Shown here one piece after another: positions 622 to 58,269 of a DNA stretch of 64,000 nt; position 1 is the stretch's first letter, and every line of letters begins with the position of its first letter. The position numbers and the translations under genes were made by a program. The notes below the pieces were generated by a model. The model ran no database searches and was not told the origin of the DNA. It saw only the letters and a list, made by a program, of their open reading frames with translations. This DNA comes from Blasia pusilla (taxonomy: Eukaryota), in the NCBI GenBank assembly GCA_050084515.1, contig CM114271.1:42408001-42472000 (forward strand), given 5' to 3'.

Positions 622-681
622 AGTAGGTTTTCCAGTATTTTGTATCTGGCGATCTAGTGTGTTTGCACAAAATCTTGAGAG

Positions 682-3600
682 ATGGCTACCTCTTCGTCAG
701 TTCGTGCTCGCCCTCCTCCGCTGGATGAAGGGAAGTTAGATGGGTCTAACTATACGTTGTGGAAGTTCAAAATGAGAACTGTTCTCGAATCATTTGAGAT
801 CTGGGAAACGGCCACAGGGGTCGATTCAAATCCACAAGCTAGTGTGAGTTCTGCATGTTCATCTTCATCTGGGGACATCGATCCTGTTGTATTATTGGCA
901 TGGAGACGCAGAAATGCTGATGCTCTATATGCGATTGTCACGAATGTAACTGATTCTATCATGACTCTCATTCAACATACAACCACTACTGCTGAGGCGT
1001 GGAACATTTTGAAGAATCAGTATGAAACAAGGAATGAGACTCGGATTCAGAATCTGGAGAATCAGCTTACGTCCGAGAAATTTTCAGAAGGAGAAAGCGC
1101 GGAGCAATTTTTGACAAGGATCAAGAATCTTCAAGATCAGATGGCGTCCGTGGGAATTTCAAAGTCTAGCGAAGATTTGGCACGTCGGTGCATAAGGATT
1201 TTGCCTCCAAGGTATGACAGTTTGGTCACTGCACTGAATACTCAAGTAAGACCCACGCCGCTTACTTTTGAACAATTTAGTGCAATGTTGGTAGAAGAGG
1301 AAATGCGCTTCAAAGCAAGAGAGGGAAGTGACGCAGCATTTACTGCCAACGTACAGAGAGGTAGAAATCAGGATTACAGTTCAAATGTCAAAAAGAAATT
1401 TCCAAGAAAAACCTTCAAATGCTTTTATTGTGGTAAGCTAGGTCATGTTATCAAAGATTGTAGGAAGAGGAGTCAGGATGAGAAGAACGGTTGTTTAAGA
1501 CCTAAGAAGGAGTCTGGAAATTCTGTAGAACTGGGAGAACATGAAGTAGATGCTTGGGTAGCAATAGAAGAGTTTTGCACACAGGCAGAACATTCCACTA
1601 AGACAAAGAGTGAAGATGCATGGGTGCTCGATAGTGGAGCATCTAGGCATATGACCAATCATAAGGATTGGTATAGCTCCTTCTGACCTCTCAGAGCCCA
1701 TTGTTATTCTTGTTGGGAATAATGCAAAGTGCCCTGTAGAAGGGAAAGGCACAATTTCTTTAGTCTCACAAAAGGAGATGAAAAGAAGTTAAGCGATGTC
1801 TTCAGACGCACTAGAGTTGAAGCGAAATTTGATTTGATGGCGTATTATGTGATCGTGACCTAGAAGTTCGTTTCAAGAAAATCGAGCGATCATTGAGGAT
1901 GCCAATGGGAAAGTAGTGGGTGAAGGTATACGACGTGGAAATATCTACGAGTTGTATGCTTTCACGACAAGTGTAGGTACATATCTTAGTAGCAGTAAGT
2001 TGTGGCATGAAAGATTTGGTCACCTAAGCTTTCCCTTACTAAGTCAAATGAAGAAATCTGGCATGGTTCTTTGATTTACCAACAATTTGGAGTGTCGATA
2101 CTTGTGAAGCTTGTATGATGGGCAAGCAACACCGACAACCATTTCCACAAGAGTCCAAAGCAATAGGGCAAAGGCTCCTCTAGAGTTGATACATGCTGAC
2201 CTCTGTGGTAAAATGAGAACAGTGGCATTAGGTGATTCTTCATACTTCTTTTTAGTTGTCGACGATTATAGTAGGAAGATGTGGGTGTATTTCCTTTGTG
2301 ATAAGGCAAGTGCTTTTGGAAAATTTAAAGTATGGCACAAGCTGGTTGAGAATGAGACAGGAAAGAAGGTACAAAAGCTTCGCACCGATCGAGGAGGAGA
2401 ATTTTTATCAACGAATTCAACCAATATTTGGGGGAGCATGGAATCAAGCCGAAGGTTAACCACGGCACATACACCACAACAAAATGGAGTTGTTGAGCGT
2501 CGAAACCGTACAGTGGTGGAGATGACAAGATGTATGATGAAAGCAAAAGGTTTGACAGAAGGATTTTGGGCTTAAGCTGTTAATATTGCCGTATACATTC
2601 TAAATAGAAGTGCTACCAAGTCAGTGCAAGGCATGACTCCTCATCAATCATACTCAGGTAAGGTACCATCAATCCAACATTTCAGGACTTTTGGTAGTGA
2701 GTGTTTTGTACATATTCTTGAAGCATCGAGGACCAAGTTGGAGTCCAAGAGCAGGAAGTGCATCTTTATAGGATACAGTGATGAGTCTAAAGCTTATCGC
2801 CTTTGGTGTCCTGAGGAAAAGAAGATGCTTGTGAGTCGTGACGTGGTGTTCTAGGAACAGCCTCGTCAAGTGGCGGATATCAGTGGTCCGTCCACATTAT
2901 CATCAAACAAAGAGATAACCCACCAGAGCACACCACAGATGTTTACACCAGATCATCAAGAAGAAGAATTTGGTGATGATTACAAAGAGCAACCTGCTCT
3001 TCCACTACAGTCGTCATACCCTAAGTAGATAAATCAGCTCTTGGATGGTAAGGATCCACAAGCAACTGATGAAGTTGTTACACATCCAAGGAGATCCAAG
3101 AGACTAGAGGAGCAGAATAGAGCTTCCGTACATCTCGTCAACATGGCCCTGATGATAGAGGTCTTGAAGGTGGAAGAGCCATCATGCTTGGATGAGGCCC
3201 TGGCTCATCCTCAATGGAGAGAGGCCATGCAGACGGAGATGGACGTTATTTAGAGAAATGAAACTTGGACTTTGGTTAAAAAGCGAGAGGACAGGAAGAT
3301 AATACGCACCAAGTGGGTGTACAAGACCAAGTACAAGTCGGACGGTATATTAGATAAATTCAAAGCGAGGTTGGTCGCACAAGGATGCTCACAAATCGAA
3401 GGCTTTGACTACTATGAGACTTTTGCTCCCACTGCAAGGATGACAACCATTCGAATTGTTCTAGCGGTTGCAGGAACAAGACGTTGGCCTGTATACCAAT
3501 ATAATGTGAAGTCTGCTTTTCTGAACGGGAGTCTCAAGGAGGAGGTATATGTTTCTCAACCACCAGGTTTTGAGACAACCGGATCAGAAGAGAAAGTTTG

Positions 3601-4688
3601 TTTACTTCATCGAGCATTGTATGGGTTGAAGCAAGCCCCAAGGGTATGGTATCAACGAATAGATACATTCTTTCGAGAGAAGGGTCTCATGAAGAGTCCT
3701 TCAGAAGCAAATTTGTATGTGTTTTGCGAAGATGGGATGTATATGTTGATAGTCTTGTATGTGGATGATCTGATCATCACATGAGACCACAGTAAGAAAA
3801 TAGAGGAAATGAAGGGAGTGTTGGAATCTGAGTTTGAAATGTCAGATTTAGGTCTTCAGACTACTTCATAGGACTGGAAATTTGGCAACAAATGATTCTA
3901 TTTTTCTCTCTCGTGTATATGCTAGAGAAATCTTGAAGGCATTCGGGATGACCGAGTGTAAGGCGATGGTCTCGCCAATGGAGATAGAGTTGAAACTCGA
4001 TGGAGGATGTTTCACCATTGGTAGATGAAAAGATGTACAGAAAGCTTGTGGGCGTTTGATATTTTTGTGTAAAAGAGACAGACATTTGCTTCATTTGTGG
4101 GAGTATTGAGTAGGTTCTCAACTAAGCCTCGTGAGAACCATTGGAAAGCGAGGATCGTGTGTTGAAGTACATCAAAGGCACTATCGAGCACGGCATCACC
4201 TATGGAGCAGTGGGACGGAAATGACAGTTTATGTGACTCAGATTGGGGTGAGATTGAGATTCTCAAGATCGTTTCGGGTTATTGCTTCTTGGTAGGATCA
4301 GGTGTGGTGTCATGGGTCAGCAAGAAGCAACCTACAGTGGCTCTTTCTTCTACCGAGGCAGAGTACAAGGCGGCTTGTTATGCTTCTTGTGAAGCAGTAT
4401 GGTTGAGATGGATACTAGAGGACATAGGAGAAGCACCAGAAAGTGCTATTGTAATGTGGTGTGACAATCAGAGTTGCATTGCCATAGCACATAATCTTGT
4501 GTTTCATGCTCGTACAAAGCACATAGAGATCCAGTGCCATTTTTTTTGTGAATTGATCGAGAGAGAGGTTTTGAAGGTTAGTCTATTGTCCAACAAAGGA
4601 TAACCGTGCAGACATCTTCACGAAAGCCTTGAGCGGAGATCAGCTTCACCGATATCTGAAGGGTCTTGGCATAGGTCCAAGAAAGTAG
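682..4688 (+). pseudogene. Copia gag-pol polyprotein with stops and frameshifts
   Basis: LDGSNYTLWKFKM; zinc knuckle CFYCGKLGHVIKDC; protease WVLDSGASRHM; integrase HADLCG / VDDYSR / RTDRGGEF / NGVVER; RT KARLVAQG, LYGLKQAPR, LYVDDL; RNase H SSTEAEY, CDNQS, RTKHIE. Confidence 0.95.
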
Positions 4689-5225: not shown

Positions 5226-5596
5226 GAGAGAGAGTAGAGTAGAGTAGATTTTTAGTCCACGGGAAGCCGATCTGGCTTATGGGACCCCTTCCACATATGT
5301 GAAATTGACATCACATCCGACATGGCACCTTCACATATAGATTTGGGGTTCTCACTCAGGAGATTTGTTTTTTTTTTTTTGTATTTTTCTTTTGTGAAGG
5401 CTTGGAATTTTATCCAGATTTTTAACCTGGGAGCATAGTCAAGGCACACACATTAAAGGCACACAAGGTGTTCTCTCTCTCTCGAACATGGACGCCACTG
5501 CCCTGGGGTTGAGACCGCCCTCCACTGTCCAAGGGGAGAGTTGAACCCAAGACCTCTTCTAGAGCACCTTATGTTTGTTCAGCTAACCTCTTGGTC
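5226..5596 (-). mobile_element. Probable tRNA-derived SINE
   Basis: Minus-strand head CCAAGAGGTTAGCTGAAC...GGGTTCAACTCTCCCCTTGG has A-box-like and B-box-like motifs and an acceptor-stem-like pairing. It ends in a simple-repeat tail (CTACT)n/(CT)n. Confidence 0.45.
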
Positions 5597-7694: not shown

Positions 7695-7871
7695 GGGTTC
7701 CGTCCGTGGTGCGTTCTTGCAGGCTTGGGGTGTATGTTGTGTGGTTTCCTCCGTGGTGCAGCCACTATGCTTTTCTGTGATGGGTGTTCGGGAGGATGGC
7801 ATATGGCATGTTTGACGCCACCTCTCACTAGGGTTCTTCAGGGACGATGGATGTGTCCCAGATGTACATAG
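7695..7871 (+). pseudogene. PHD finger, C-terminal module of the element's integrase
   Basis: CMLC...MLFCDGC...WHMACLTPPL...GRWMCPRC gives the C4-H-C3 pattern. It is followed by the same 3'UTR/PPT seen in copies B and D. Confidence 0.88.
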
Positions 7872-8047
7872 AGTAGGTAGTTCTATATTCTGACTTGTGT
7901 GTGTGATATGGATGAAGGCGACTAACGATGGGGCCACATGAGCACCCGGCCTTCTTGCTCTTAGCGTCTGAGAGATGTATGTTATGGTAGGTAGGGATAG
8001 ATGGCTATCTAGAGTTAGAGGGACCTAACCACCAGCTAGGGGGGCGA

Positions 8048-8263
8048 TTGGAGATATTTTGGTACTTCTTCTCTCGTTGTTTGGATGCCATGAGTTAACT
8101 TGGGATCGTGCGTGTTTGTGTGTGTGTTGGGTGACAGCGAAGTATGTTGTGTAGCGATGTGTATGCGTACGACAACTTTCACGTCTTTTGGGATAGATCG
8201 GTGAGATCCAGTAAAGCGCCTTTGTGAGTATAGGAGGACAGACTCACTAGGTCGAGGATGACC
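8048..8263 (+). repeat. B1 (8048-8174), AC spacer and truncated A2 (8177-8263) of copy A
   Basis: Follows the PPT-like CTAGGGGGGCGA. Junction reads GCGTACGACA-AC-TTTCACGTC. Confidence 0.8.
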
Positions 8264-8269
8264 TCACTG

Positions 8270-9520
8270 AGTACCATCAATGTTTGGAAGATGACATTGC
8301 GCACAGTTACCCTCATGGTCCTTCCAAACATACCATCGCGTCCCTCCAATAAGAGAACATCGGATGGCAAAACCTCACGCACTCTCAAGATGGTGCGCAC
8401 TGCAGTCACATCCAACATCTTGTGTACCGTCTACTACAAGTAGACATAGTCTCCCCGATGAAACCTCCAAATAGTAGGTCAATATCCACCTCCATGAATA
8501 GTTGCATACCTCAACGTATCCCGATGTTGCGCAATCGCCAAGTTTTCAAACGCCATGGGCATCACTCTCCGAAACAACTTAGCCCTCTCGGAACATGCTC
8601 GCATCCATATATCAGGGTCATCAAAGTTCAACACCTCACCAGTATCTCAACGAATGGCCTCTGGTAAATGCAGCTCTTGGCCATAAAGCAACAAGTATGG
8701 TGAGAAAGACGCTAAGGATGCTTGCCTACTGAATCTGTATCCCATTGCCAACCACGGCAACTGAAGGTCCCAATCTCCTAGGTGACCTCTCTGCAAGCCA
8801 TACTTGCGTAGTCCTCTCTTCACCGTCTGTACAACCCGCTCCGCTAGTCCATCCGCCTCAGAATGATCTCGCAAAGTAGGGTGGTGGTCGATCAGTGCCT
8901 GATCACACAAGGCCTGAAACTCCCTGCAGAACTCTGTACCCTGGTATGTCAACACCTCAACTGGTGCGCCGTAATGACTCAACACTCGATCTAGGAAGGC
9001 ATACGCAACTCCCTCACTCACTTTGTCAGGAAATGCAACCAACTCTATCCACTTTGAGAAGTGCTCGACCATCACCAACACATCATGACTATGACGCACC
9101 GTTAAAGGCAGAGGTCCTACAAAATCCAAACTCCACCTATAACCTAAACCCATGATCTGAAGTGGATGCAATTGTGGAGTTGGAACATTGAACGATGCTC
9201 GAACTCGATCACACACCATGCATCTGGCAAAAAATTTCTGAACGTCAGTCTGCATGCCTCGCCACCAATACTGAATTTGGAGCAAGTTATACGTCCGCTT
9301 CACTCCAAAATGATCTAACTCCTCGTGGGCATGACGCACCAAACATGCTCTCTGCACAGGATGAGGCACTACACGCACTCTACCATCCTCCCATACTCGC
9401 AATACATGTGTGCCCTCCCACCGAAACGGTCTGGCTCGTTGTAGGACCCGATCCCGCTCTCTAAAACCCACTGTGCTTACGACGCTGCCAGTACGCAGAT
9501 AGTCCAAGACCATTCCATCG
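8270..9520 (-). pseudogene. Gypsy-type DDE integrase, copy A
   Basis: HHCC motif (HAHEELDH...CMVC), WSLDFVGP, LTYQGTEF (second D mutated), GLAERVVQT, SPYLLLYG; the C-terminal extension ends ...HLPNIDGT at the breakpoint. Confidence 0.92.
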
Positions 9521-9531
9521 TCGTGAATGTC

Positions 9532-11170
9532 TCAGCCACCTATCGTCTCCTCACCGGCCTCTGGATCTAAGGACTCTCCATCATACCTCCCCATTGAAGT
9601 CTCAGTAATCTGGCTCTCCATAGCCAACAAGCCAAAATAGGTTGACGCATGCCATCGTGGCACCAACTCCCCATCACTCTCACGATGCCAACGAGCTCCA
9701 GTCGCATCTCGCTGACTCGGGCATGGGTTACGGCTCAAACCATCTACATCCTGGTTGAGCGTCCAAAGTCTATGCACCACGTGGAAGTTATACTCTTGCA
9801 ACAAAAGAGCCCACCTTGCCAGCTTCCCTGTAAGCTTGTCGGACTCCATCAACCACTTAAGTGGTTGATGATCAGTAATGATGGTAAAGGGATTGCCGAA
9901 TAGATAATATTTGAAATGTGCGATAACCCACATTGCAACCAAGCACTCACCCTCATACGAGCTAAACTTCGCTTCTACAGCATTGTTTGAGCGACTAGCA
10001 TAAGCCACCACAAACTCTCTACCATCATCGTCATGATGGGTGAGCATGGCTCCAAAGCCTCAACATGCTCCAATCGGTATGCAACTCGAAAAGAAGACCC
10101 CTGATCGGTCTCCTCAATATGGGCGTGGACGTCAATATGTCCTTGAGCATCTGAAATGCTCTCTCTTGCTCATCCCCCCAATGCCACTCTTGATCCACCT
10201 TGGTCATCAAGGTTAGCGGCTTCGCAATCAAACTGAAACCCTTGACATACCATCGATAGAAGTTTGCCAATCCCATGAATGCACGTACTTGACTCACATT
10301 TGTAGGGCGTGGAATGTGTGAAATAGCTTCTACCTTCGTCTATTGCACACCAAGGCCCCAAGGGTATATCATATGACCCAAGTATTCAATCTGGTCGTAG
10401 AAGAAATTGCACTTGCCTGGATGTAGCTTCAGCCCATGTAACTACAATCGTCGAAACACCTCCTCTAGATGTCGCTCATGCCCCTCAATCGTGGCGCTAA
10501 AGACTACGATGTTATCAATATAATACCTAGCAAAATCTAGACCTGCCAAGATCCTATCCATGACCCTCTAAAACTCAACTGGGGCGTTCTTCAACCCGAA
10601 TGGTAAGAACCGCCACTGGTACAAACAATCCTTCCCGTGAGGATCGATGTCCCAAAATGCCATCTTTTTCCTGTCCTCCAATCTGATAGGCAATTGATGG
10701 TATCCGGCTCGCAAATCCAATGAACTAGAGACCTTTGCATGAACAATCGCATCAAAGATCTCCTCAGGGGTGGGCATGGCATACCTATCGGCCTTTGTCT
10801 GCCGATTGATAGGTCAATAATCTCCATACATTCGCTTATCCGTCTAGTTTCCATGCACATCCTTCTTGGCGGGCATGACAGTGGTAGATGCATACTCTCC
10901 ATGCGACATATTCAGTAGTCCTACTCCAACCAAGTCCTACTGGCTCCTACCCTGAATTAGAGCTCTCTCCATATCACTGTACCTCTAGGATTGTCGGAAG
11001 ATTGGCGTATCACTCAACAACTCAATGCGGATCTCCGGTCCCTTCAGAATACCCAAATTCTCCATGCTAAACGCAAAGCAGCTCCTATAACTCCTAAGGA
11101 ATTGATGTATTTGGCGCCGCTCTCCTCCTGTCAACTTAGGGCCCATATCTAGTTCCCAAGTCTCCATCGT
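9532..11170 (-). pseudogene. Reverse transcriptase and RNase H, copy A
   Basis: LDLRAGYHQ, PFGLKNAP, YIDN (YxDD mutated), RAFMGLANFYR, LHTDWS, VAYASRS, ITDHQPLKWL, LARWALLLQEY. Confidence 0.93.
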
Positions 11171-11659
11171 GACTACGATAGGACTCTCTGGCGCGGATGT
11201 CGGTGGTTGCTATGGTGCAACCCCATTCTCAATATCCACATTGACATTGTCTTGAAATACTTCTTCAATAGAACTCCCATCTCCACGTGGTCCAAATACG
11301 GAAGAGTGAGATTCTTAAACCACACTTGTTCCCCAACTTGGCTATCATCTCACGGCGCATTTCCACTACATGCAAAACATCCCAAGAAGTCCAAGGTGTC
11401 TCTCCGGAAAATCACCCGAGAATGCTTCTTAGTCGGTGTGTTGATCTCCTCTTTGGGTCTCGTAAGTATTGGAACCGAAGTTTACTTTTTCCGTTTGCCC
11501 ATCCGTTTGAGGATGGAAGGCCGTACCCCGATCGGACCTCAACTAGGCAATCCTCAAACGGATTTGCCTTGATCACCAACCATCCAGGAATAGTCTCGGT
11601 AGGCATGGAGCTCACCAAAGCAACAATTGTGAGCTATCGCATCCTCAAACGACGTTGCT

Positions 11660-12348
11660 CAGCTACTCCTAAGCTGAAAATCCATGTGGGTAGCTTGAAG
11701 ACAAAGTTCAAGTCCATCGCTTAGCATAAAGAAGAGTGCTCACCGACATCCTCATCCGGCGTTGTGGAGCTCACTCTCAACAATTGTGACCGTTCAAAGA
11801 CATGACGTCGTGATGCCTCCAATAGTGACGGCATTGCCCTCACTCCTGTGGGGAATCCCATCACTCGCTCTCACTCATCGGCGTTGGGCTCCACCACCCT
11901 CTGCACCTGGTCATCCCAAGCCAAGCCAGGTCCGACCTCCTTGAATGCATAGTAAGCAGGAAAACTCACCAATGTGGGAAAAGCGGCTCGTGGCATGCCA
12001 ATCATGTTGACCATAGTCAACGGCGGTTGTCATCGTGCCTCACTGCCTGTGATCGATGGCCCGGATCCAATATAGAATCCACCAACAAATCGGAGAGACG
12101 CTCCACTCTCGCATAAGCCCTCCGCAATACCTCATGTGGTACCAAGTTGGTCCACCAAAGATGCGGGCGATGTGCTCGTGAACCCACACTCGCTGCATCT
12201 AACAACCTTGCCGGGCCGATCCATGCGCGCACTTGATGTGCACTGGTCACCACGCGGGACCTCGAATCGCCCAAAATTGGCATATTCTCCAAAATGTATG
12301 TTGGAGAACGAGACCGATGCTCATGTAAATATCGCACGATCCGCATCA
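11660..12348 (-). pseudogene. DNMT3-like C5 methyltransferase, motifs VI-X, copy A
   Basis: YILENMP...LLDAASVGSRAHRPHLWWTNL, followed by a degenerate EREMGF...MDLN region homologous to ERERAMGF...LGQAMDLNCL in copy B. Confidence 0.85.
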
Positions 12349-13303
12349 CACTAGTAGAAAATATGCCATTTTTAACCCATATGTTTGTGACTTATGTTAC
12401 TACGAGTCATTTGAATTACACTTAGTTACTCCAAAACTGGTCAACTCGCGAGTTACTCACAAGATGGTTTAGTCACAAAAAGTTAGTAATGTAAACTTAG
12501 AGAGGAAAAAGAGTTTTGGATCAAGATGGGAAGATCGAAAAAAGAGAAAGAAAAAAAATTAGAAAGATAGAATTTCTTCAACACATCTAACTTGGCTTAA
12601 GAAAAATTTTCAAAAATTTTACTTTATTAATTACGGAAAAAATAATTTACCCCTTTTCCAATCCCCGTCTTCCAATAAGTAAAAGAAAATTTCTTACTTG
12701 ATGATTTTTTCCCAAAAGAGGGATTAAATTTTTCTCCCAATCTAGCTTGAAAATTAAAATAATATAGATATAATATTTCTTCCATTATTTTTAAGAATAA
12801 ATTTTGTCCCATTAGCATACTATTATCCTTTTCCTTTTTTCCCAAAAGGCAAAGTAATTAACTAAACTTTAAGTTGTTATTTCTCATAACTTCATTGGCA
12901 CGAACCTTGAGAATAGAATTTTAAATTTTCTAATGAAAACAGAGAATAAAAATGAAGGAGAATCTAAAATATTTCATGTTTGAAATTTGAGTCAATTAAA
13001 ATTAATTTTTAAAAATTAACCTAATTATTAAAAGCTTCCCATTCTTGTTTTTTTCGTAGTATAGGGTAGAATCAAGAAAGCTCCATGAATGAATTGGCTT
13101 CATGGAAAAATCTCAAAGGTATCATTTATTTATTGGTTCTCAAAATGAAGTAACGCACTTAATAACAAGATGATGTCTATTATTTTTCAAGTAAAAAATT
13201 CCCGCGCTTTGGCTTGATGTTATCCTTATTTGCGCCTAGGTTTGTATCTCGGACATTCTTCTCTTCTCTACTCTTGCCCAATTAAGCACAGATGTCCCAC
13301 TAG
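12349..13303 (+). mobile_element. AT-rich insertion beginning with a CACTA-like terminus
   Basis: Starts CACTAGTAGAAAA; no matching inverted right end seen. Positions 12550-12875 are similar to 35680-36015. Confidence 0.45.
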
Positions 13304-13304
13304 A

Positions 13305-13975
13305 TCAATCATCGTGCCTCACTGCCGGTGATCGACGGCCCGTATCTAATATAGAATCCACCAACAAATCGGAGGGACGCTCCACTCTCGCATAAGCCCT
13401 CTTAAATACCTCATGTGGTACCAAGTTGGTCCACCAAAGACGCGAGCGATGTGCTCGTGAACCCACACTCGCTGCATCTATTAACCTTGCCGGGCCGATC
13501 CATGTGCGCACATGATGTGCACTTGTCACCACGCGGGACCTCGGATTGCTCGAAATTGGCACATTCTCCAAAATATATGTTGGAGAACAAGACTGATGCT
13601 CATGTAAATGTTGCAAGATCCGCATCATCTCCCAAAACAACGTGGATCGAGTGTCAGCTAACCCGTTGCCTTGTCCAGCACTCGATTGGCCCTAACATGG
13701 CGAACCGGAAATGACCAAATCAATGGTCCCTACCCGCTCTAAGTCCTGCGCCCCGAGCAACGAAATATCCCTTGGTAGGGAACTCTCGTACTTTGACAAT
13801 AAATCGGGAAAACGTATGCATAACTACGCCATATGTCATAGTGAGACGCGCCTCGCAACATCATCACTCTCCATATACAAGTAGTGCTGCACTCCCACTC
13901 CTGCCTGCAAAACAATAGCTAACGTAGTGCTAATCCCTCCAAATAGATCTAACACTCAAATACCCTCCTCCGGGA
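13305..13975 (-). pseudogene. DNMT3-like C5 methyltransferase, motifs I-VIII, copy A
   Basis: VLDLFGGIST (motif I), YLYMESD (II), IDLVISGSPC*G (IV, catalytic PC), LFWEMMRIL, YILENV (VI), AHRSRLWWTNL (VIII). Confidence 0.9.
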
Positions 13976-14129
13976 TACACCACACAATGGGTGTGGTATC
14001 CAAGGGTGTCATTGTAGCACTCCCTGCTACCTCGGGTTCCTCAAACCCATCACGCTCCGGTGCAAACACCTCGCTCCACGTAGTCTGCACGTGCTCATCT
14101 GCTAATCGTCGAAGGTCCTCTGTCGACCC

Positions 14130-16500
14130 CTATAACGGCACCTCTCCTCCACGGAATGATGCGGCTACCATAACACTCCTCTCCATATAAATTTCAAGAA
14201 CGGGAGTATCCTCTGCATGGATATGTCCCTCAATCAAATCACTAGGCCAAGTGATAGCACTTCTAAATGCTGCTAAGGTCGCCACCTCTCCTGGCCTTCC
14301 CTCGATCACTGCACCTGTGAATCGAACGAGTAATGAGCTAAGACGCCCATCACCTGAATACCATCCTGGTCTATAAGACGCTGATTCCTTCAAGTAATCC
14401 CATCGGATATAACACTGCTCCACCAACCAAGACGTCGTAGGACTCTGCATTAGTCACTATCGCCTTGGTTGGCACGACGGACTCATCTGTAGGATGTCCC
14501 GCGTGAATCCTCACCACGATCTCATATCGGGTGATATACTATGTGGTACTCGCTCCACCAAAGGATGTCTATATCCAGAATGGAAAACGCTCCACATCGG
14601 CTCTCGTCAAGACCAATCCTCTGAATGACGCTTTCCCCAACATGAGGGGTTGCGCTCTTGAATCCAACAAGATGCGCTGCCGACTAAAAGCTCTCCCTCC
14701 GGGACTCACCAACTGGAAGACCTCTCCTCGGTTATCCAGCAACAAACACCAGGAAAAGCCATGGCACGCCGTATCATAGGTCTAGCGGGCATCTCCTTCA
14801 TCCTAGCAGCCGCAGCTTGCTATGAATCTGATGTGGACGGCGCGAGCATCCGCTCCAAGGGTAGGTCCATCACCTCCTCTGCAATCACCTCTGAATATGA
14901 TGCAAGAACTCCAACTCCATGCTCATATATTGAAGTGGCCAGCCAAAAAGCCTTGGCCGACATACCCCCCAACGTCATAACATCAAAAGCAGAAAATAAA
15001 GGAGTGCGGTACACAACGGTGGCCGCCCCCAACAACGTGCTCTACACATGCCCCTCCTTAGCATCAACAACAGGAGTCATTGCACTTGCTTCTCCCATCG
15101 CCCTCCGTACCTGCACACCAACAACATCACCAACTCTCCAGAACTTTGATGAGGACCCATCGATGGGGTCCTCATCTCTTTGGGCAACGTGTAAGACTGT
15201 AAGACTGGATCCAACTTTGCGACTTCTCCACGCGTCACAATCTGCGGCGGCCTCCATCTTGGCAACCTCGCACATCCAACCAGGACCCTCTATATCTCTG
15301 GCTCCTCCATATGATGTCGATGCCACGGATCCAGCATCGGGTAACCTCAATGCCATAGCGGCAATCTGCTCCTCTAGCTGCTGTATCTGAGCAGCCATCC
15401 CAGCCTCTCGTTTGGTATCTCCCTCGGCGCGTCTAGGTGGTGGTACTCTACCTCCTCCATGGGCAGCTCCACCACCTTGTCGGGCAACTCCAGCTCCTCG
15501 TCCCCCAACGGGACCACCTGGTGCGTGATCTCTATGCCCACCCGGACCGGCTACTCGCTCTGGTGCCCTCTTTGGCCCTTGGTCCGGACGTAACTCATGA
15601 TGTAAATTAAAACACCTGGGGATGAACTTGGGACAAACCCGATAAGATGGTGCAATTGCTCCAGTGCGAGTGATCCCTCCTAAAATATCACTAGTGGAAG
15701 AGGAAGTAGCCTCTCTTGACTCGTCCTCGTCATCTGGGAACGGCTCCGTCCATGAAACATAGTGTGGGTCATAGTAGAGTCACCATGCCTCAATCTCCAA
15801 GGCACATTTGTGGGAGAACTCATGGTAATCGTCCATGAGCGCCCCCTCTAAATGCTGGAACATACCATTCCACGTTGTAAACGGGTTGAACTCTCTAGAG
15901 TTTGTAGCCCTCTATGAGTCATACCAACTCCTAAACTCCACAATGAAGTCATGTAGCTCTATAGTGCCTACATCACCCGAAAACCTACGTGATCCTCTAC
16001 CCCGGTCGTCCATCTTGTACGCCCAACTAATAGGACCACTCAATGTGTAGGGTGGATAACTAACACACTCCTCTATACACTCAATCTCGTCTGAATACGA
16101 CACAAAAGGAGATCGAAGTGGTCTCTCACGTGGAGACCCTCAAAGCCTCGCACCAATCCGGATAAACCCTCCAGAGCTACTCTCAAGTCCACTACCTCGC
16201 CTCTCAAAAACCCGAAAGGACGCCGTGATGGCCCTCGTGCCCCTCTCACACGATCACTCTCATTCTCGTGAGTAATCCCTCAATCACTCAAACTAAACAT
16301 GCGGCATTCAATCTACACTCTCTCACTCAAACATGTGTTGTGCGGCAACAAGCAACGTGGTGCATATTTGGGAAATCCCTCACACGTGCAGGGTAAGAGA
16401 CCAAAATGGGTAACCTGATAATAATGTCGATATCGCTCCTCGGCAACTGCAAATCTCAACCCCAACTCGGTTGTGAAGACAACCCCTCCAATCAGCAAGT
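14130..16500 (-). pseudogene. gag and aspartic protease, copy A
   Basis: The gag segment FQHLEG..MDDYHEF is shared with copy B. Protease reads LLDSRAQPLMLG...SYDVLVG at about 14420-14740. Confidence 0.75.
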
Positions 16501-17658: not shown

Positions 17659-18189
17659 CTCATTCTCCATTTGTAAAATATGATCAAATCTCTCTCACAA
17701 CACTATAATTCTCACATGTGTGCACTCTCAGATGTGTCTCTCAATGTCAAACCAAACCCACTCTCCTAATGAGAGGCTTGGGTCATACACACAAGGCCAG
17801 CAAGACCATAGCTCCCCCACCTCATGCCAAGAGGTTCAACAAAGAGAGAATGAGCTCTCAAGTTCTCTCTCCTTGAGGTATACCCCTCCCCTCTCCCAAG
17901 CTCTCTCCATGGTAACCTATGCTCCCAAGTCACCTCCTTGGCTCTTGACCTGATGTAGGAGGTCAAAGGAAACTTACCAAAAATAGAAAGTTGATCACAT
18001 ACTCAAAATGATACCGACCTAAAATATACGTTCCCCAATATGGCTCCAAATGAGCCGAAACGAAGGGGAAACCTACTCTCTCAGGTTTCCCGCGGCCCTA
18101 ACGGTCATCCTCGACCTATTGAGCCTGTCCTCCACTACTCACAAAGGCACTCTACTAGATCTCATCAATCTATCCTAAAAGACGTGATA
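17659..18189 (-). repeat. 5' repeat A1 of copy A, with promoter and putative self-priming site
   Basis: Positions 18189-18103 match A2 at 8177-8263. TATA-like motif at 17882-17879. Positions 17674-17659 are complementary (14 of 16) to 17854-17839. Confidence 0.7.
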
Positions 18190-19972: not shown

Positions 19973-22900
19973 TTAGTCAGGGTAGGGTTGCGGCTGATGA
20001 TACCATCGAACATGTATGCCATTGACGCGAGTCGGCAGTGCCTCTCCATTTAATGTTTCCAACTGCACTGATCCATTATCATATATTGCTAATACACGGT
20101 AGGGTCCCATCCAGTTCAATTTTAACTTCCCGCAGAACTTCAACTGGCGGTTACCATACAGCAACACCACGTCCCTAATACTTATAGATTGCGGCCTTAG
20201 ATGTCGGTTGTATTGTTCTTTCCGTTCTCTCATGTAGGGCTATGACCCGTGCTTCCTCCAACGCCATTAAGATCTCATTCCTCCCTTGGAGAACCCCTAT
20301 GGCATCCTCCGTTCTATTCTCCTCCAAAACGCGATAAGTGGGTAAATCCCATTCAATAGGAATCAAGGGTTGAACTCCATAAGTAAGGTAAAATGGGTAT
20401 ACTTGGTGGTAACCTTCTTTGTTGTCCAATAGGCCCACAACGCCATTGGGATTTTTGCGTCCCAATCATAAGAATATGAAACCGTCAAGCGATTCAGTAT
20501 CCAACAGATAAGTCCATTAGATTTTTTGGTTAACCCATTGGCTTTAGGATGGGTGGGATGCTTGATTAAAAAGTGGGAAGTCAACGACTCAATAGTCTTG
20601 TTCAAGAAGTGAGTGCCATGATCACTTACCAACTCCAATGGGTAGCCATACCTGGTGATAATCATTTTGTTTAAGAATTTGGCCACGGCCTCACTATCGT
20701 CTTTGCGTGTTGCAACGGCCTCGACCATCTTAGTACAGTAGTCGGTGGCTATAAGAATATATTTCCACCTTGTTTGGTGATTAGTTGAAGAAATAGGCCC
20801 CACAAAATCAATGCCCCATTTCTCAAAAGGAGCTAAGGGCAGGATTGGCACCAAAGGCCAGCGAGAGGTAGCAGTTGGTCTTCGTGCTCTTTGACATGCA
20901 TCACAACTCTCAATAAATTTTTCTACATCCATGTACATGGTTGGCCACCAGTAATGTGCCACCAAGATATTCTTGACCATGTTCTTAATGGCATAGTTTC
21001 CTCCCGAATTGGCTGCATGCATGGCCCTAATAACGCGAGAATTTTTCTCTGCTTCCAAGCATCTTTGATACTCTTTATTAGCACCTAATTTGAGTAATAC
21101 TCCGTGACACAACTCATACGGGCCTATTTAATGTAAAAAAATTGCCCGCTCCTCCGTCGTCATACGGACAAGAAGTTGTAAGGTTATCAAAAAATTCAAA
21201 ATTTCTTCATACAGGGACTAGCATAGTTGGTCCTCAGTAATCTGGAATAGGTGCTTGTCAGGGAAGGTGTCGTCCAAAGTCTGTGTAAGGTCCGCCTTTG
21301 TCATCCGCAACCTTGATAAGAAATTTGTGTTGGTATGTACCTTTCCTGCACGGGTAATTACATCGAATGTGAATTCTTGAAGTAACAAGATCCACCGCGC
21401 AATTCTTTCGAAAAGATCCGCCTTGACCATTAATGGTTGGAGAGCAAAATGGTCCACATGAAAGACAAACTCATACCCTAAAAACTAATGACGGAACTTC
21501 TTACAACAGAATACCATTCCGTGCGCTTCCCGTTTGATAGTGGTATATTTCTGTTCGGTCGTAGATAATTTCCGACTTGCGTAATAAACCGGATAATCAT
21601 GTTTGTTATCATCAAGTTGGCTGAGCACCACCCTTATGGCAAATGACAATGTGTGCACGTACAAGTGGAAGGGTTTCGTCATGTTAGAGGGCCAAAGTAC
21701 GGGAGTTGCAAGCAACGCTTGTTTTAATTCTTCAAACGCTTCTTGGCAGGTGGGGGTCCAATCCCATTCGATGACCTTAAGCAAAGCGGTTAGGGCTCCT
21801 GCTTTTACTGCATAATCCTTAATGAACTGTCGATAATATTCGATATGGCTTAGGAATCCCCTCAGTTCTTTGAGGTTTGTGGGAGGTTCCAATGCTACAA
21901 TAATATCCACTTTGGCCTTGTCAACCTCAATCCCCTGGGAGGACACTCGGTGTCCCAACAAGATAGATACCTTGTCTCATGGAAATATACGACTTTTCAG
22001 GATGGAGGGATATATGCCAAGGTTAACTTTAATTTGTGCAAATGCTCCGCCTCCGAACTGAAAATACAAAAAATATGGAGGAAAATTTTGATGAATTTCC
22101 GAGGATACTCTTTGAAGATGGAGATCATTATCCGCTGGAAGGTTGCCGTCCCATTACACAGCCCAAACGACATCACTTGATACGCGAAGGTGCCCCATTT
22201 GGTGGTAAATGTTGTGAGGGGCCAATCTTTTTCCCTAATGGATACGTGTATATAACCCGAGTACCCGTCCAAGAACGTATAATGCTTGTGGCCAGCGACT
22301 TTTTGTCCAAAATGATGTCGATGAAGGGTAGGGGATGATGGTCCTTCAAGGTGACCGCATTCAACTTGCGATAATCTTGGCATACCCTGATCTTCCTCGA
22401 TTGCTTCTTTGGTACAATCACAATGGGAGATACCCACTCGCTGCTCAACACGGGGTAAATAACTCTTGCTTCGAGATGCTGGTCTATCTCGTCATTGAAT
22501 AACAACGAGTATTTGGGATTAAGGTGGTATTGCATCACACGCATTGAGATGATGCCCGATTTTAGATTGATTCGGTGTTCACCATACTTCGCGGGAACAA
22601 CATTCATTTCATCCATGGCATACGTGAAGATATCCAAGTACTCAAGCAATACATTTTTATAATTAGTGAGTTATGTAGGGGACAAATCCGCCGGAAGGGA
22701 TAAGGATTTCTGACTTGTAATTAGGACTTGTACATAGTCCTTTTCTTGAACCATATTTTCCGTAAACGGGAATGTGCTATGGCCTTGTTTTTCTTCTCGG
22801 TTGACCTTTGTTCTCTAGACGTCGAATCTTCGTCGACTTCATAGCATTCTAAATAATATACATTAGAGGAGGACTCAACAACTTTTGTTTCCTCCTAGTT

Positions 22901-23340
22901 GACGCATAGCCCTCGTCAGTCGCGGGAATTTCTCCTTGAGTCGGAGGTGATTTCCATGAAAGCTTGATCAATCTTGTTGGGACTTGGTCTGGAGCTTGGA
23001 ACATGAACCGTCTTCTTTTCCATTTGGTGATCACTTGTGCATCGTAGAGCGAAGACTGCCCAATCAGCAAGGGGTATCTTGTGGCTGTCAATGGCTGTAA
23101 CACTAAGTAATCCGGAAGAAATAATACACTCCCCACCATTTTCTGGAATCAGAGTGAGCTTTCCGAGTGGTCACTTTCGGGACTGATCCGCATGCCGCAG
23201 ATATTTTTCTATGGGCTGGTACTTTGTGTATCCCAAAGCATGGGCTGTCTATTCTGTCACAATGTAGATCCCACTCCCGGAGTCAATGGGGACTTTCTTA
23301 ATGGTTTTTCCATCAATCTCGACTTCTACTTCTTGGGCTC
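19973..23340 (-). pseudogene. pol (PR-RT-RH-INT) of the non-chromoviral gypsy element
   Basis: VPIDSGSG; FLDGYSGY; SFGLCNGTATFQR; PVYYASRKL; RIARWILLLQEF; CDACQR; KWGIDFVGP; LVSDHGTHF; WMGPYRV. Confidence 0.92.
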
Positions 23341-23428
23341 CCAAATCTTCCACTTCAATACGAAATAAATCCATAACTAGTAGATGCTTTGGGGACTTTT
23401 TGTGTTTTCTCCGGCTCACCTTATACTA

Positions 23429-24950
23429 TTACAAAATCTTACCGTAGACCAGGTTATCCATTAGCATTTGTAATAAGGTGATATTGGCTAATATTGATGC
23501 CAAGTCCCTAAGTAAGTTGTATGCTTCTAAAACGAGTAGTGAGGTCACGGTGATGGCTTGTATAGTTGGCGCCTTTTCTGCCCTCGGTCTTTCTGTTGTC
23601 CTTTGTGCCACTAGTTCTTGGCCTCGGTCTTGGCAGACTTGAGCATGAATCTGGTCCTCGACATCCTGATGAAAGTACTTGGGATGACTTCGGTCAAAGG
23701 CCCGGTCCAAATCTCCTTTAAGAATGGCCTTCCTTGCCCAAAAGGTGTCTGTTCTTTTCTTCTTGGAGTCTTTGACTTCGCGCAAAGACAAAGCCCCTAC
23801 CCTCATCTTGGTTATCTCAATGGTCTTGGTCTTTGACCTTGTGGTGATAACGAGGGCTTTGTTCAGGAGATCCTCGGGCCATTCCGAGGATTCTTCGGAT
23901 GCCTTTCTGTCAGACTCCTCTTCCCTAATGGTAACTTTTCTTATCTTGGGAGATGCTAATTCCTCCACTCGGACGAGCTAAAAATTCACCATTCTCGGAC
24001 TCTGCTTGTGCTGCTAGGGTTGCTATAGACTTGACCAACAATCGTGGAACCTTGGGTTCTGGGCACTCCATTGCAGTGTGCCCACCCTTCTTGCAATTCC
24101 CGCACAAAGGATTGAGTCCTACTGGCACCTTGGGGATTGGGCAATTTTTGGCCTAATGGTTTGTTGCCCCACAATTGTAGCAGCTGTTTATTTTTTTTGG
24201 TGGAGTGAAGGCCGTAGGGTCCATAATCGGTCTCAAGGGTCTCAGTTCCCTGTGTTTTGGAGGCACATACCTTGGGATCCAATTTCGTTTGGGATTAGAG
24301 GCGGGCATGGCCTGAATTGCATAACAACCTTCCCATTTTTCGGCTTCATACCACCCTTCTTCTATAGTTGGGTCTTCCTGCATCCAACGTAGATCTCTCT
24401 GAAGGTGACACTCCTGGGCAGTATGCCCTTGGTTTCCATAGGCACTGCACCATACGTTCGGCCTCATAAGACCTGGTCTTCTTCTCGGGTCACTCTGGGC
24501 CCCCATACGCACCTTCAACTCTGCCATTTGTTTACTTAACTCCTCCATGGCTGACTTGCTTGCCTTCCTCTTGGTCCCTTGTACTGGACTTAGAGACTTC
24601 TGGGTGACATGCTTTGCATGCCTAGTTTTCCACCCAAGCTTGGAAGAGCGGTGGTGTGTGCCCTTTTTCTTCCGCTTGGACTTTGAGTCTTCTTCAAAGT
24701 CTGAGGACTCAGTGGTATTGTGAGTAGAAGCTTCAGTGTCTGTAGAGGACGCTTCGTCATGGGGCAAAGAACTAGTCTGCAAAGCGCCTTGTCGTTGGTG
24801 ATGTCATCTTCGTGTCTTGCAAGATTTCTCAAAGGCTTCGTACGCCTCCGCGGATGCAATGACCGTTTCCAGCGAGTCTCCTTGGCCTCGGCGGCAGTAT
24901 TGGTCCATTTCCTTGGATAGTTGAGACACAAACCAATCTACCAATTGCGA
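23429..24950 (-). pseudogene. gag of the non-chromoviral gypsy element
   Basis: Zinc knuckles CSAYGNQGHTAQEC (degenerate), CYNCGATNH..KNC and CGNCKKGGHTAMEC; ITTRSK motif. Confidence 0.8.
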
Positions 24951-24960
24951 GGTAGTGGTG

Positions 24961-26985
24961 TGTGATACCCAAAATTTTGTACTTTTAGAGATTTATACAT
25001 TTTGATTCAAGGAATGAAGACTCTATGAAGTGAAGATTGTACATATAAGATTGTTTTAGATATTATGTTTGTGAATTGGAAGAATGAGTAATATTGAAAT
25101 GGATCACAAAGCTCCTAGGACAAGGCAGAGAGGTGGAAAATCAAGGATTTGCCTTAGAGGAGATGGAAATGGAGTAACGAAGTCTAAAGACTAAGAGAAA
25201 AGCTTGGACAAGACAACGAAGCCTTATTAAGAGCTTGTTAATGAAGTGCTTTGCTCTTGAACAAAGCATGATGAAGATGAAGAGGAAGAAGTACTTCGCT
25301 TTTCAGCGAAGCACAAAGCACTTGGAAAAGAGCGAAGAATGCAGCGCTTCACCCTCAGGAAGAGCTTCGTCCTCAAGGGAAGAAGAAGAAGTTGAGACTT
25401 CACAGCGAAGCGAAGCTAAGACTCGAAGTGATTTCAAGCATCACATTGTTAGAACAGTTAAACTAGGAAGAGGCGCAACTTTTTGGACTAGATAGGAAGT
25501 AAGGACAGTTACTCCCCGCAGATTCATAGCAATCATAGGAAAAGATAAGAGAATCGTAGATCAAAGTAGTTACAAACTCTCAATAGACACTAGATTCGTA
25601 AGAGACGCTTCCTACTACTGCCTCAGAAGATATTTAAGAAGCATGAAAGTAGCTATCATCATCATTCTTTCACGAAGTCCTTATGTTGTAGGAATGGTCC
25701 AAGCAAGGGAGTAGTACCCTCTCAAACTTGTATACACTTTGAAGCTTTCTCATTCTTGATGGAGTAGTAAAGCCTTCATTTCTTCATTCTGATGTGCGAT
25801 GCATATGTCTAAGAATTCTTATTGGGTCTGCAAAGTGAAGAGTGAAGCAGGAGAACACTTTCATCATTAGAATAATCAACATTGAGTCGTTAGAAATTTG
25901 TTCGACAACGAGTAGCCTGCCTAGACGGATTGAGTTTCGAAAGTATGAGAAGCCAACTTCTTGTTGAGGTCTCTGTGAGGTTCTTTGATGTTGAGTGAAG
26001 ATCTACATGAGCGTGAATTCAGTTCCACTCGAGAGAATCGAGGAAAGAAATGTTGGTACTAAGGGAGAGAAGAATACATTGATAAATGATTGAATCCGAA
26101 TTATAAACACTTAACTACATCTATTGCAAGATAAATGCCATCTTGAACTCTCCTTTCACATAACCATGATCCTCTTGGGGATCAAACTCATTAAATAAAT
26201 GTAAAAAGATCCATTCTTAATCTTCTGATACATTACATATAACCACAAATTTTTGGCGCCGCTGCCGGGGATCATAAGATTTGCTCGAAAGAGAGACACT
26301 GATGGGTAACCCCGGGCCGGGGAAGAAGCATCGTTGCCTAGGAGACCCAACCATCTAGTTCTCACCAAAGATCATCTCCTATCTCTAGGTATTCCCTTAA
26401 GACAATGGATGGAAGAGGATAGCAATCTTTTTGCTGCATTAGTACTAGAGAAGATAGAATAGTTAATTATTATTGTCAAAGAACCCGTCACAAAAGGATG
26501 CTTCGCCCATGAACCTCAGTTGTACTTGGTGATAACCCGCTACTTCTGTTTATGGGAGGAAAACCTGGCTGGTAGATTGAGGGCACATTCACACTTCCAT
26601 AGGAATTAGGAAGACCCAACTTTCTCTCCATGGATTGATATCCTGCAGGAGGCTTGGGTGCGCAACCAAGCTCATGAATCCTAGGAGGGACTCATGGAAG
26701 CCTTTTGGCCACCCGCTTGAGAACAGCAAGCTGACCGAGGTAATAAGCAACAAGAAGATCATCCGTCTTGGAGACCGCCGGGTGTATCTCCGAGACTTTG
26801 TCCTCGAACGAAGCCAAAGAGCAAGAAGAGGGACAGGAGTGCGCTCCGCGGCACGTCTCCTGCCACTTCGTAACTTCGGAAAAAGAGTCAACCTAGAATC
26901 CCTTTGGGGACTCGAGGGACGAGGGTCCGGCCAGACCAACCAAATCAAAACCTCTATCACCTCCTTCCGGAACATCAAGTCTGAA
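24961..26985 (+). mobile_element. Athila-like 5' LTR (24961-26247), PBS and leader, truncated
   Basis: TGTGATACCC...AACCACA, followed by TGGCGCCGCTGCCGGGGA at 26254-26271 (tRNA-Asp-type PBS characteristic of Athila). Confidence 0.8.
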
Positions 26986-26989
26986 AAGA

Positions 26990-28247
26990 CGTGAGAAAGA
27001 GTTTAAATTGGTGGTTATCTTGCAATAGTTGTAGTTAAGTGTATGAAGTTTGGATTCAATTAGGTACCATTGTATTCTTCTCTCCATTAGTACCAAGATT
27101 TCTTTCCTCAATTATCTCAACTGGAATTGAATTCTTGCTTAGGCAGACCTTCACTCAACACCAAAGAACCTCACAGAGATCTCAACAAGAAGATGGCTTC
27201 TCTTACTTTCAAAATTCAATCCGTCTTGGTAGGCTACTCTCTGTTGAAAAAATTTCTCACTTCTCAATGTTGATTATTCTGTTGGTGAAAGTTGCTCTCC
27301 CAATAAGATGATTCATAAATACATGTCGCACATCTAAATGAAGGAAGGGAATTCTTTACTATTCCATCAAGAATGAGAAAGCTTCAAAGTATATACAAGC
27401 ACAAGAGGGTACTACTCTCTTGCTCGGACCATTCCTACAGCATAAGGACTTTGTAAGAGAATGATGAAAGTAACTACGTTTATGGTCTTTAAATATTCTT
27501 CCAAACAATAGGAGTCCTAAAGATCTGAAGCGCTTCTTGTGAAGCTAGTACCTAATGGGATCTTGTAACTACTTTGATCTACCGTTCTCTTGACTCTTAC
27601 TGTGATCCCTATGAATCCGCTCATCTTAAGTGTCCTATCTTCCTATCTGGTCCGAAAAGTCATGCCTCTTCCTAGCCTAACTACTCTAATGGTGTGCCAC
27701 TTGAAATCGCAGAACAGTCTTATCTTCGCTGTGAAGTCTGAACCTCTTCTTCTTCCTTTGAAGAAAAAGCTCTTCCTCTTCTTCTGAAGACAAAGGGCAA
27801 CATTCTTCGCGCTTCTTCCAAGTGCTTTGTTCTTCCCTCTTCATTCTTCCGCGAAGCATTATTGCTTCTTCTTGGTGCTTCGTTGAAGAGCAAAGTACAT
27901 TTGCTTCTTCTTCTTCATCGTGCTTTGTTCAAGAGTGAAGCACTTCATAAAAAAGTTCTTTATTAGGCTTTGTTGTCTTTGCCAAGCTTTGCTCTTGGTC
28001 TTTAGACTTCGTGAATTCATTTCCTTCCCCTCCAAGGCAAATCCTTGATGTTCCACCTCTCTGCCTTATCCTAGGAGCTTCATACTCTACTGCACTACTT
28101 TTATAATATCCAATACTCAAAAATAATATTCATATAGTCTTATATCTGCAAACTTTACTTCAAATAGTCTTCATCCTTGAAGAGATCCATACTCAAGTTG
28201 AATGAAAATGTATTAATCTGAAAATTTACAAAATTGCGGGTATCACA
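26990..28247 (-). repeat. Second LTR of the same Athila-like family, inverted, lacking about 90 terminal bp
   Basis: The reverse complement starts TGTGATACCC and follows 24961-26160 colinearly. Confidence 0.88.
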
Positions 28248-29117
28248 CTTGGTCAATCAACATTCTTACTTTTCGAGTTTGTGAGTCGACCTCTCATCAA
28301 GCTCAACCTTCCTAGTTTCCTGGTTTACAACATTGGCAAGTCTTTCAAGACTTGGGACATACTTTCTGGTCGGTTCAGGAACCTCAAACATCGTTTGCAC
28401 GCCTAGCGGTCCCAACTGTCTAGTGGACATCCAATGAGTCCCTAACTTTGACTCAAAAAAATGAGTTGCGGGTTGGAATCCAAGTGTGGCTTAAGAAATC
28501 CACTCCCTTGGTTTAAGTTTGGATTTGGAGTTCCAACCCCAAACTCCCGTTCCATTTGATGTTCAGGGTTCAAGAATCCTTGGAGATACTTCCCCTTACT
28601 AGTATTTTTGGGGATCTTCGCCCTCTCCCTAACTTTGGGGAAAGAAAATTGGGCCCCCATTTTGGCCCTTAATCTAACTCCTCTTACAATTGTTTTCGGA
28701 AAATATCTCAACCTTTGCTTCAGCGTTTTTTGAGATCTTTGATGCGTTGTAATCGTCTTTGTATAAGATTTCCAATACCAACTTATTTGTCCCAAATGCA
28801 TCTTGGGACTAGACATTATGGTCCGAAACATAGTCAAAATCCCCAAACACTAGTCATGTTCCAAATATAGTTCTTACCTCTTTGGCAACCAACCTTCCTA
28901 GACTCAACTCATCTCAAGTCTTGGTTCACGTTTGGTCCAGGTTTCCTGGTCGCCAAACATAAATATTTGAAATGCACAAAATACATTGCCCATTTAGTCT
29001 CTTGGACTTTTCCAAGAGACCTCTCTAAAGCGCAACCATCCTAGCGTGAGCCCACTAAAGTTCTAATGTTTTGCTTGGCGTTTTTTGGGTGTTTGTTTGA
29101 TTATGAGGGTCTCGACT
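28248..29117 (-). repeat. Chromovirus-family LTR, 3'-truncated
   Basis: The reverse complement aligns by eye with 55974-56890 and with the 59011 solo LTR. Confidence 0.82.
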
Positions 29118-29119
29118 AC

Positions 29120-30200: not shown

Positions 30201-30719
30201 TGAGGTTTTTGGAGTGTTGTGCCCATGTGATTTGAGAACTTGGTGGTTGTGCATCATCAAGATAAGTTGAGGTATGTGACAATTTGGGGAGTTTGTAATG
30301 GACTAACGATGGAGAGGTTTCATCAAAGAGATTACGTCTACTTGCAATAGACAACATTTATGATGTTAGATATGACAAAAGAGTGGACCATCTTGAGAGT
30401 GAATGAGGTATTTCCATGTGGTTCCTTGGGGATGATGGATGTGCCTGAGATGTTTATAGAGTAGGTACCAAGTAGTCACTTGCATTAAAGATATGAATGA
30501 TAAGAAGGCGATTAGAGATGGGATCATATAAGCACCAAGCCTTTTTGCTCTTAGCATTTTCGTTTAGTAAAATGAACCACTATGTATCTTCCATTCTTAT
30601 TAGTATTAGAGAGAGTTTTATAAGTATTAAATAAATTAGCTTAAGGAAATTAATTTTCATGTTTAAACGTCTTAATGATGCCTCATTTGTGATGGCCCAA
30701 CTTTAGGGAAAAAGGTAAT

Positions 30720-58037: not shown

Positions 58038-58269
58038 TGGCTGCTATGCCACCCCTCACAAGATGGTACACCCTTAGCTACACCACCATCTGAGCAAATA
58101 AATCCTCCACCAGCATGAGCAACCAACTCCACATGCCGAGTGATTACATCCCATTTACTCCAAGGATGCAAAATACTATTCTCCTCGGCCCCAGCCGATG
58201 TCTCTACCGTCCTAGTAGCCATCGAGCTCATCACAAGGGGTGGAAGACCCATAGACATAGTCCGAAGTC

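Follow-up and report, generated by a model that had tools for sequence, protein, structure and literature searches.

The window, a 64,000-nt stretch of the Blasia pusilla genome (contig CM114271.1, positions 42,408,001 to 42,472,000), contains the rearranged retrotransposon copy summarized in Table 1. A full C4HC3 PHD finger with the expected ligand spacing, all eight zinc ligands intact and a Trp ahead of the final Cys pair is encoded on the + strand and is followed by a single Thr and a TAG stop codon at 7869-7871. It matched the Pfam model PF00628 with an E-value of 3.1e-11 (43.5 bits, cut-off 24), and the C4HC3 pattern appeared in 0 of 50 shuffled windows. The 3'UTR, a purine tract and terminal repeat B come downstream, so that the full PHD, stop, 3'UTR and polypurine tract described in the earlier note were all recovered. 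Family homology on the + strand starts at 7713, the preceding 18 positions (7695-7712) being non-family bases. The inverted piece therefore spans 558 nt (7713-8270) and comprises the PHD, the 3'UTR, the purine tract, repeat B and the start of repeat A. The integrase, on the opposite strand, terminates at ...HLPNIDGT near 8271-8293. This end had been correctly noted before, except for its position beside the PHD: what it abuts is the far end of the inverted piece, at 8270/8271. Since 22 nt are lost between the integrase piece and the PHD piece, and the remainder of the 3' repeat (the rest of the second A and the second B) is absent at this locus, the rearrangement is interpreted as an inversion plus a deletion. 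The methyltransferase (DNMT) region of the same copy has a stop in motif IV, a 319-nt duplication and a foreign insertion at about 12350-13307, and the copy is therefore considered dead. The overall reading, given moderate confidence, places the stretch in a high-copy Ty3/Gypsy family of the Gypsy-Dnmt3 kind, as the inverted 3' end of one of its dead copies.

Table 1. Features of the rearranged element copy in the window.
Feature	Position	Strand	Remarks
End of integrase-PHD linker, C4HC3 PHD and stop	7713..7871	+	Inverted piece; PHD at 7731-7865
3'UTR with polypurine tract	7872..8046	+	Tract at about 8038-8044, just 5' of repeat B
Terminal repeat B, first copy	8047..8174	+	128 nt; CA end
2-nt linker and first ~94 nt of second A repeat	8175..8270	+	Right inversion breakpoint
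Integrase: H2C2, DDE core, C-terminal domain	8271..9531	-	Stops and frameshifts; HLPNIDGT end
RT and RNase H	9532..11209	-	Broken
Conserved in-frame TAG, then CAA-CCA	11210..11212	-	Readthrough-type context; end of ORF1
DNMT3-like C5 methyltransferase and ORF1 tail	11213..13960	-	Broken
Gag and aspartic protease	13961..16253	-	LLDSGAQP-like motif near 14670; gag upstream limit approximate
Self-priming candidate site	17659..17673	-	Right after repeat A; degenerate in this copy
5' terminal repeat A	17674..18189	-	516 nt; TG start in other copies

Other elements were recognized in the window: a decayed Ty1/copia element at 679-4603 (+; gag, integrase, RT and RNase H by eye), an unrelated Gypsy element at 20363-24937 (-), a large fold-back at 24960-28248 with two 1.2-kb arms that are 74% complementary, a non-LTR retrotransposon remnant with a restriction-like endonuclease end at 39025-40705 (+; by eye), a hAT-like transposase in pieces at 46286-48533 (-; by eye) and, at 54195-55178 (+), a Tf2-like integrase with an SH3 domain (PF24626) whose end resembles the start of a chromodomain. 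No tRNA genes were found in the 64-kb window. Two further copies are relatives of the element in Table 1. Copy B, from a related family (28900-30555 and 32453-32541, +), has a DNMT followed by deletions, and its integrase end is joined to the last PHD residues and the 3'UTR in the same orientation. Copy C (53804-62860, -), from a second family, has gag, protease, DNMT, TAG-CAG-CCA, RT and RNase H; its integrase and PHD are deleted, and other elements interrupt it.

The fusion of integrase and PHD, which the earlier note had drawn across the inversion, was examined in uninverted copies. Of the 8,668 first-look candidates in the genome search, 150 were scored, every one with at least 77% identity; these figures do not represent a copy number. 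Family-A copies, the family of the window copy, were picked by PHD similarity, which biases the PHD counts upward. Integrase DNA was directly upstream of the PHD on the same strand at 29/29 other loci, and at 25 of these the integrase C-terminus and the PHD shared one open frame, confirming the fusion. The spacing between both domains was in frame in 15 of 19 copies, and one copy has 584 open codons running from the end of RNase H through the integrase to the PHD. In the second, divergent family (family C), the PHD follows the integrase at 22 of 24 loci. All eight ligands are kept in 40/45 family-A and 16/24 family-C copies. No chromodomain was found after the integrase: in 27 of 28 matched copies the stop comes one residue past the PHD. 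The PHD is the C-terminal domain of the integrase. Among the database matches listed, 86 of 120 homologs carry PF00628 (manual count), including proteins named from Calypogeia, Marchantia, Sphagnum and Klebsormidium, and ESM Atlas matches were to PHD clusters from Streptophyta and Chlorophyta. Both families cluster with liverwort proteins in a tree built from 114 integrase-core sequences, and their 65-tip group (support 0.935) also contains the Klebsormidium integrases, a placement that concerns the integrase.

The complete element has the layout TG[A]-gag-protease-DNMT3-like-TAG-RT-RNaseH-integrase-PHD-UTR-PPT-[B]CA-NN-TG[A][B]CA, with CCHC knuckles in the Gag of other copies. All ten extended copies show the ends TG[A]-coding-PPT-[B]CA-NN-TG[A][B]CA and a perfect 4-bp target duplication. 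The protease-RT-RNaseH-integrase order, the TG..CA ends and the 4-bp duplication (range 4-6 bp for the group) are those of Ty3/Gypsy elements, and the second family follows the same A-coding-B-A-B plan with shorter repeats. The 2-nt linker (n=14) was AC in 8 cases, GC in 4, AT in 1 and GT in 1, and in nine copies the divergence between the two A repeats (A1 and A2) is 1-5%. An A-coding-B arrangement, flanked by perfect duplications, was seen in two copies. Solo A-B units at L046 (with upstream flank) and L090 are the family's equivalent of solo LTRs, one of them with a near-perfect 4-bp duplication. Two named groups were rejected as candidates: Troyka has CG..CG ends and a 3-bp duplication, while here they are TG..CA and 4-bp, and the NCGN target preference of Phygy (REXdb) is not reflected in the duplications, with a central CG in 0/15.

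Pairing between the sequence immediately downstream of A1 and the interior of A extends over 15 nt in 9 of 17 copies and over 10-12 nt in three, and is absent in five (a count made with no shuffle control, after one spurious row was dropped), which suggests self-priming. The order of the repeats could correspond to a permuted LTR, in which the reverse-transcribed LTR would be B-NN-A and integration would cut a two-LTR circle inside one LTR. If the circle were cut at random, A-B-A-coding-B copies would be expected; none were present among the 10 extended copies and 14 further upstream regions, of which five lacked the 5' end.

The presence of a DNA methyltransferase in the PHD-bearing element, also claimed before, held in both families. 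Among 20 ten-kb loci picked for long open frames, 15 have a DNMT on the strand of RT and upstream of it; of the other five, four lack the DNMT region and one forms a join with an inverted copy. In the second family, the DNMT is part of the same element at 7 of 8 loci. Motifs I, IV, VI, VIII, IX and X occur at fixed spacing. A related Calypogeia DNMT is 59% identical, and its nearest solved structures in the PDB are those of DNMT3A/B (DNMT3A, E 8e-11). Pairwise dN/dS between the two families was 0.16 for the PHD (45 codons), 0.14 for the DNMT (294 codons), 0.11 for RT and 0.09 for the integrase core, rough ratios with the between-family dS near saturation (1.3-2.1). Within the second family, the values for PHD and DNMT were about 1, as expected for decay after insertion. 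By codon comparison, both the PHD and the DNMT prove to be under purifying selection; the DNMT3-like domain, intronless and with its catalytic motifs, is in this respect as in Gypsy-Dnmt3 elements. A genome search for PHD-integrase relatives devoid of a DNMT, using a relative with an acidic PHD as query, gave 12 loci; the best matches were about 60% identical, and the position-matched ones belonged to the two known families.

An in-frame TAG separates the DNMT from RT at all 26 family-A sites found, with CAR-YYA next in 23 of them. In the second family, TAG-CAG-CCA is present at 6/8 loci and in window copy C. A run of 1,254 open codons for Gag, protease and DNMT leads up to the TAG in one copy, with another 934 open codons continuing in frame after it, and several Marchantia and environmental proteins likewise end shortly after the DNMT. 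The DNMT and the PHD are about 1,100 codons apart. Protease processing of Gypsy polyproteins is established and would part the DNMT from the integrase-PHD. As CAR-YYA after UAG is the readthrough signal of TMV (PMC2754532), the stop is predicted to be leaky, and it would probably put DNMT and PHD on separate proteins with separate jobs. The position of the DNMT shifts between lineages: in some environmental relatives, a single open frame has it after RNase H and before the integrase. The PHD, in contrast, keeps its place on the integrase.

Among the environmental proteins, P0152, P0153, P0162 and P0163 are single open frames of the type RT-RH-DNMT-INT-PHD. These four and about a dozen relatives have a tail of 200-470 aa after the PHD. 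Some tails contain LDPW and xxPP motifs and look like adenine methyltransferases by eye; the Pfam D12 match was weak (E 0.11) and in P0101 only. It is possible that these proteins with post-PHD tails represent PHD-type EpiLTRs.

The distribution of the scored copies did not support the histone-guided targeting proposed in the earlier note, since they are spread almost evenly along the chromosomes. At chromosome scale, per-contig counts and relative positions fitted a uniform distribution for family A (142 hits, p 0.73 and 0.67) and for family C (149 hits, p 0.12 and 0.30), in a test that dropped the hits on small contigs. Mild clustering was seen in family A only (p 0.007). Three of ten insertions, a count with no control, were in tandem repeats (64-bp, short telomere-like and 180-bp repeats in the flanks of L032, L035 and L039). 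Regarding expression, 5,295-5,578 reads per 10-12 million records matched one copy at 88% likeness or more in three RNA-seq runs of one study with the same species label, covering 30/30 bins and mostly 90-95% alike. The signal was strongly one-stranded, in the sense direction assuming a standard library type. These reads show that the family is transcribed, with many decayed copies as the probable source; they do not demonstrate activity.

Regarding what the PHD may read, the nearest solved fingers are those of CHD4, PHF12, KAT6A, KDM5-PHD1 and BHC80. The Trp of the K4me3 cage is located two residues before the His ligand. It was found in 0/45 family-A and 0/24 family-C copies, and Gly occupies the position in 61 of 66 homologs; given the role of this Trp in H3K4me3 reading (PMC3241642), recognition of K4me3 is unlikely. 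Readers of unmodified K4 use acids before Cys1 (PMC3241642) or, alternatively, an acidic wall (PMC5415848). The wall before beta-1 is missing in all 45 family-A and all 24 family-C copies, and among database members 0/9 in the clade have either feature vs 53/56 keeping one outside it, a contrast that counts as one evolutionary event and makes a Fisher test invalid. With neither the cage Trp nor the K4me0-type acids (missing in 45/45, 24/24 and 9/9), the earlier proposal that the PHD reads the H3K4 state is doubtful and not supported. The Asp after Cys3, which belongs to the Arg2 pocket, is conserved in 69/69 own copies and 62/66 homologs, and the P-x-G-x-W Ala1 pocket is kept (Pro in 56/66 and Gly in 53/66 homologs). 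Because the equivalent Asp is also fold-stabilizing in UHRF1 (PMC3214078), its conservation is no proof of H3 binding. From these residues, binding of H3 via Ala1/Arg2 appears plausible, and K4 selectivity is doubtful.

The PHD is neutral to basic, with a median net charge of +4 in family A and +3 in family C, and a nearly invariant Asp is found 16 residues before Cys1. The positive charge of the own copies, together with the absence of acidic features inside the clade and the continued conservation of the domain, would fit a PHD that has changed its ligand and no longer binds the H3 tail. It could bind DNA, RNA or protein, the internal CA-NN-TG attachment site or the integrase itself being examples, or only stabilize the integrase C-terminus. 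However, the Ala1 pocket and the Asp after Cys3 are retained, UHRF1-type fingers bind mainly through Ala1/Arg2, and the nearly invariant Asp before Cys1 might supply charge, so a change of ligand is taken as a possible but tentative alternative. A joint version is judged unlikely: a DNMT made at Gag level before the leaky stop would methylate the element's own cDNA, this cDNA would be joined into a two-LTR circle, and the DDE integrase would cut the circle inside one LTR (at CA-NN-TG), guided by a PHD with a new ligand instead of H3K4.

The earlier note had also compared the element to DNMT3, with a PHD that reads the H3K4 state and couples the DNMT to chosen chromatin as the ADD domain does. 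Coupling could take place in the readthrough precursor, or through a DNMT that stays on the intasome and methylates the insertion site. PHD and DNMT do occur together in two families here, the environmental single frames have the DNMT beside the integrase, and the nearest solved PHDs are readers of unmodified H3. Nevertheless, in this family the Gag-protease-DNMT product ends at TAG-CAR-YYA with RT-RH-INT-PHD behind the stop, and the analogy fails on anatomy because of this stop, the codons that separate the two domains, and a DNMT that moves between lineages with the PHD fixed on the integrase. Moreover, the K4-contacting acids are missing in the clade, and a PHD is also found on Gypsy polyproteins with no DNMT listed, as in the legend for Gypsy-7a_cRei. 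Such coupling is thus regarded as improbable.

The last alternative concerns the window locus, where PHD and integrase might derive from separate copies in a tail-to-tail join: neither the remainder of the 3' repeat nor a target duplication is present, the A pieces are only 88% alike vs 95-99% for A1/A2 in nine fuller copies, and inverted joins are present at other loci too, but the pieces are nearly complementary, with the integrase stopping 22 nt short of the PHD-piece start, which would be unexpected for independent copies and favors a single copy with inversion and deletion, so that a two-copy join is quite unlikely and would not alter the family-level result. Inverted or tail-to-tail joins within the family were observed at loci L024, L033 and L050, and such rearrangements seem common.

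The reading we lean towards is that of a Gypsy-Dnmt3 element whose DNMT acts on cDNA and whose PHD serves as an intasome tether, in separate steps. ORF1 would be translated in bulk into Gag-protease-DNMT, and occasional readthrough of the TAG, at a few percent, would add RT-RH-INT-PHD. Since the DNMT would come from the bulk ORF1 product, it may be packed into particles at Gag-like amounts, where it would most likely methylate the element's own new cDNA. Methylation of cDNA has been suggested by De Mendoza et al. 2018 for the DNMTs of DIRS elements (PMC5890265). The PHD on the integrase would loosely tether the intasome to chromatin, most likely via the free H3 N-terminus in the Ala1/Arg2 pocket. 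It would disfavor K4me3, as it has no cage, and show weak K4 selectivity. DNMT and PHD would then act at different steps, and the PHD would not steer the methyltransferase. The DNMT of KnitGypsy showed no activity in yeast, a result called inconclusive by its authors (PMC5890265), and this counts against the preferred reading.

With these results, Gypsy elements that carry a DNMT3 are known from a very large family of a land plant as well as from a charophyte alga, and the wiring of the parts becomes apparent, with the writer made with Gag and the reader with the integrase. The wiring predicts methylated cDNA inside particles, by which the role of transposon DNMTs becomes testable, and the clade-wide loss of PHD acids offers a natural pair for comparing reader specificity. 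For annotation, such elements inflate the DNMT3 and PHD gene counts of bryophytes, and element ends of the A-coding-B-A-B type would escape two-LTR finders.

PHD-bearing Gypsy elements, among them REM1 of Chlamydomonas, are already published, as are Gypsy-DNMT3 elements and the reader-plus-writer idea (chromodomain EpiLTRs). Chromoviruses have ordinary two-LTR ends. What is new is the predicted split by readthrough, together with a loss of acidic PHD residues that is specific to this clade. A PHD and a DNMT3 in one Gypsy element were not found described in the literature searched, subscription journals and Repbase reports being outside its reach.

On the best reading, the element would be a land-plant variant of Gypsy-Dnmt3, of the kind of KnitGypsy-Dnmt3 from Klebsormidium nitens. 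As far as the latter has been described, both combine Gypsy domains with a DNMT3-like domain under purifying selection, DIRS-like A-coding-B-A-B repeats and a streptophyte host (PMC5890265), and Klebsormidium integrases of this group carry PF00628, as here. In KnitGypsy-Dnmt3, the Pol ORF that encodes RT and RNase H also includes the DNMT, while here they are in the same frame with the conserved TAG between them; "PHD" occurs 0 times in the main and supplementary text of the paper, figures being outside this count (PMC5890265). Its host is a charophyte alga, whereas here the family is very large and the closest named proteins are from liverworts.

PHDs on retrotransposons have been called widespread (PMC6673714). 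Gypsy-7a_cRei of Chlamydomonas likewise has a PHD in its Gypsy polyprotein, for which an insertion bias was proposed, with intergenic insertions 2.6-fold above chance; compared by description only, it has two LTRs and no DNMT is listed (bioRxiv 10.1101/2022.06.16.496473). EpiLTRs also unite a chromatin reader with one or more DNA methyltransferases in one LTR retrotransposon, but as reported their reader is a chromodomain, their DNMT is sister to DNMT4 and accompanied by an adenine methyltransferase, and their hosts are Cymbomonas and Euglena (bioRxiv 10.64898/2026.05.21.726589). Chromoviruses share the reader domain at the integrase C-terminus, with a chromodomain instead of a PHD and with targeting experimentally shown, while here the reader is known from sequence (PMC6673714, PMC12440569). 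Finally, animal DNMT3A and DNMT3L, as described, also have a PHD-like zinc finger encoded together with a DNMT3-type catalytic domain, but their ADD adjoins the methyltransferase in one mature protein, whereas here a canonical PHD is on the integrase, behind a stop codon (PMC3241642).
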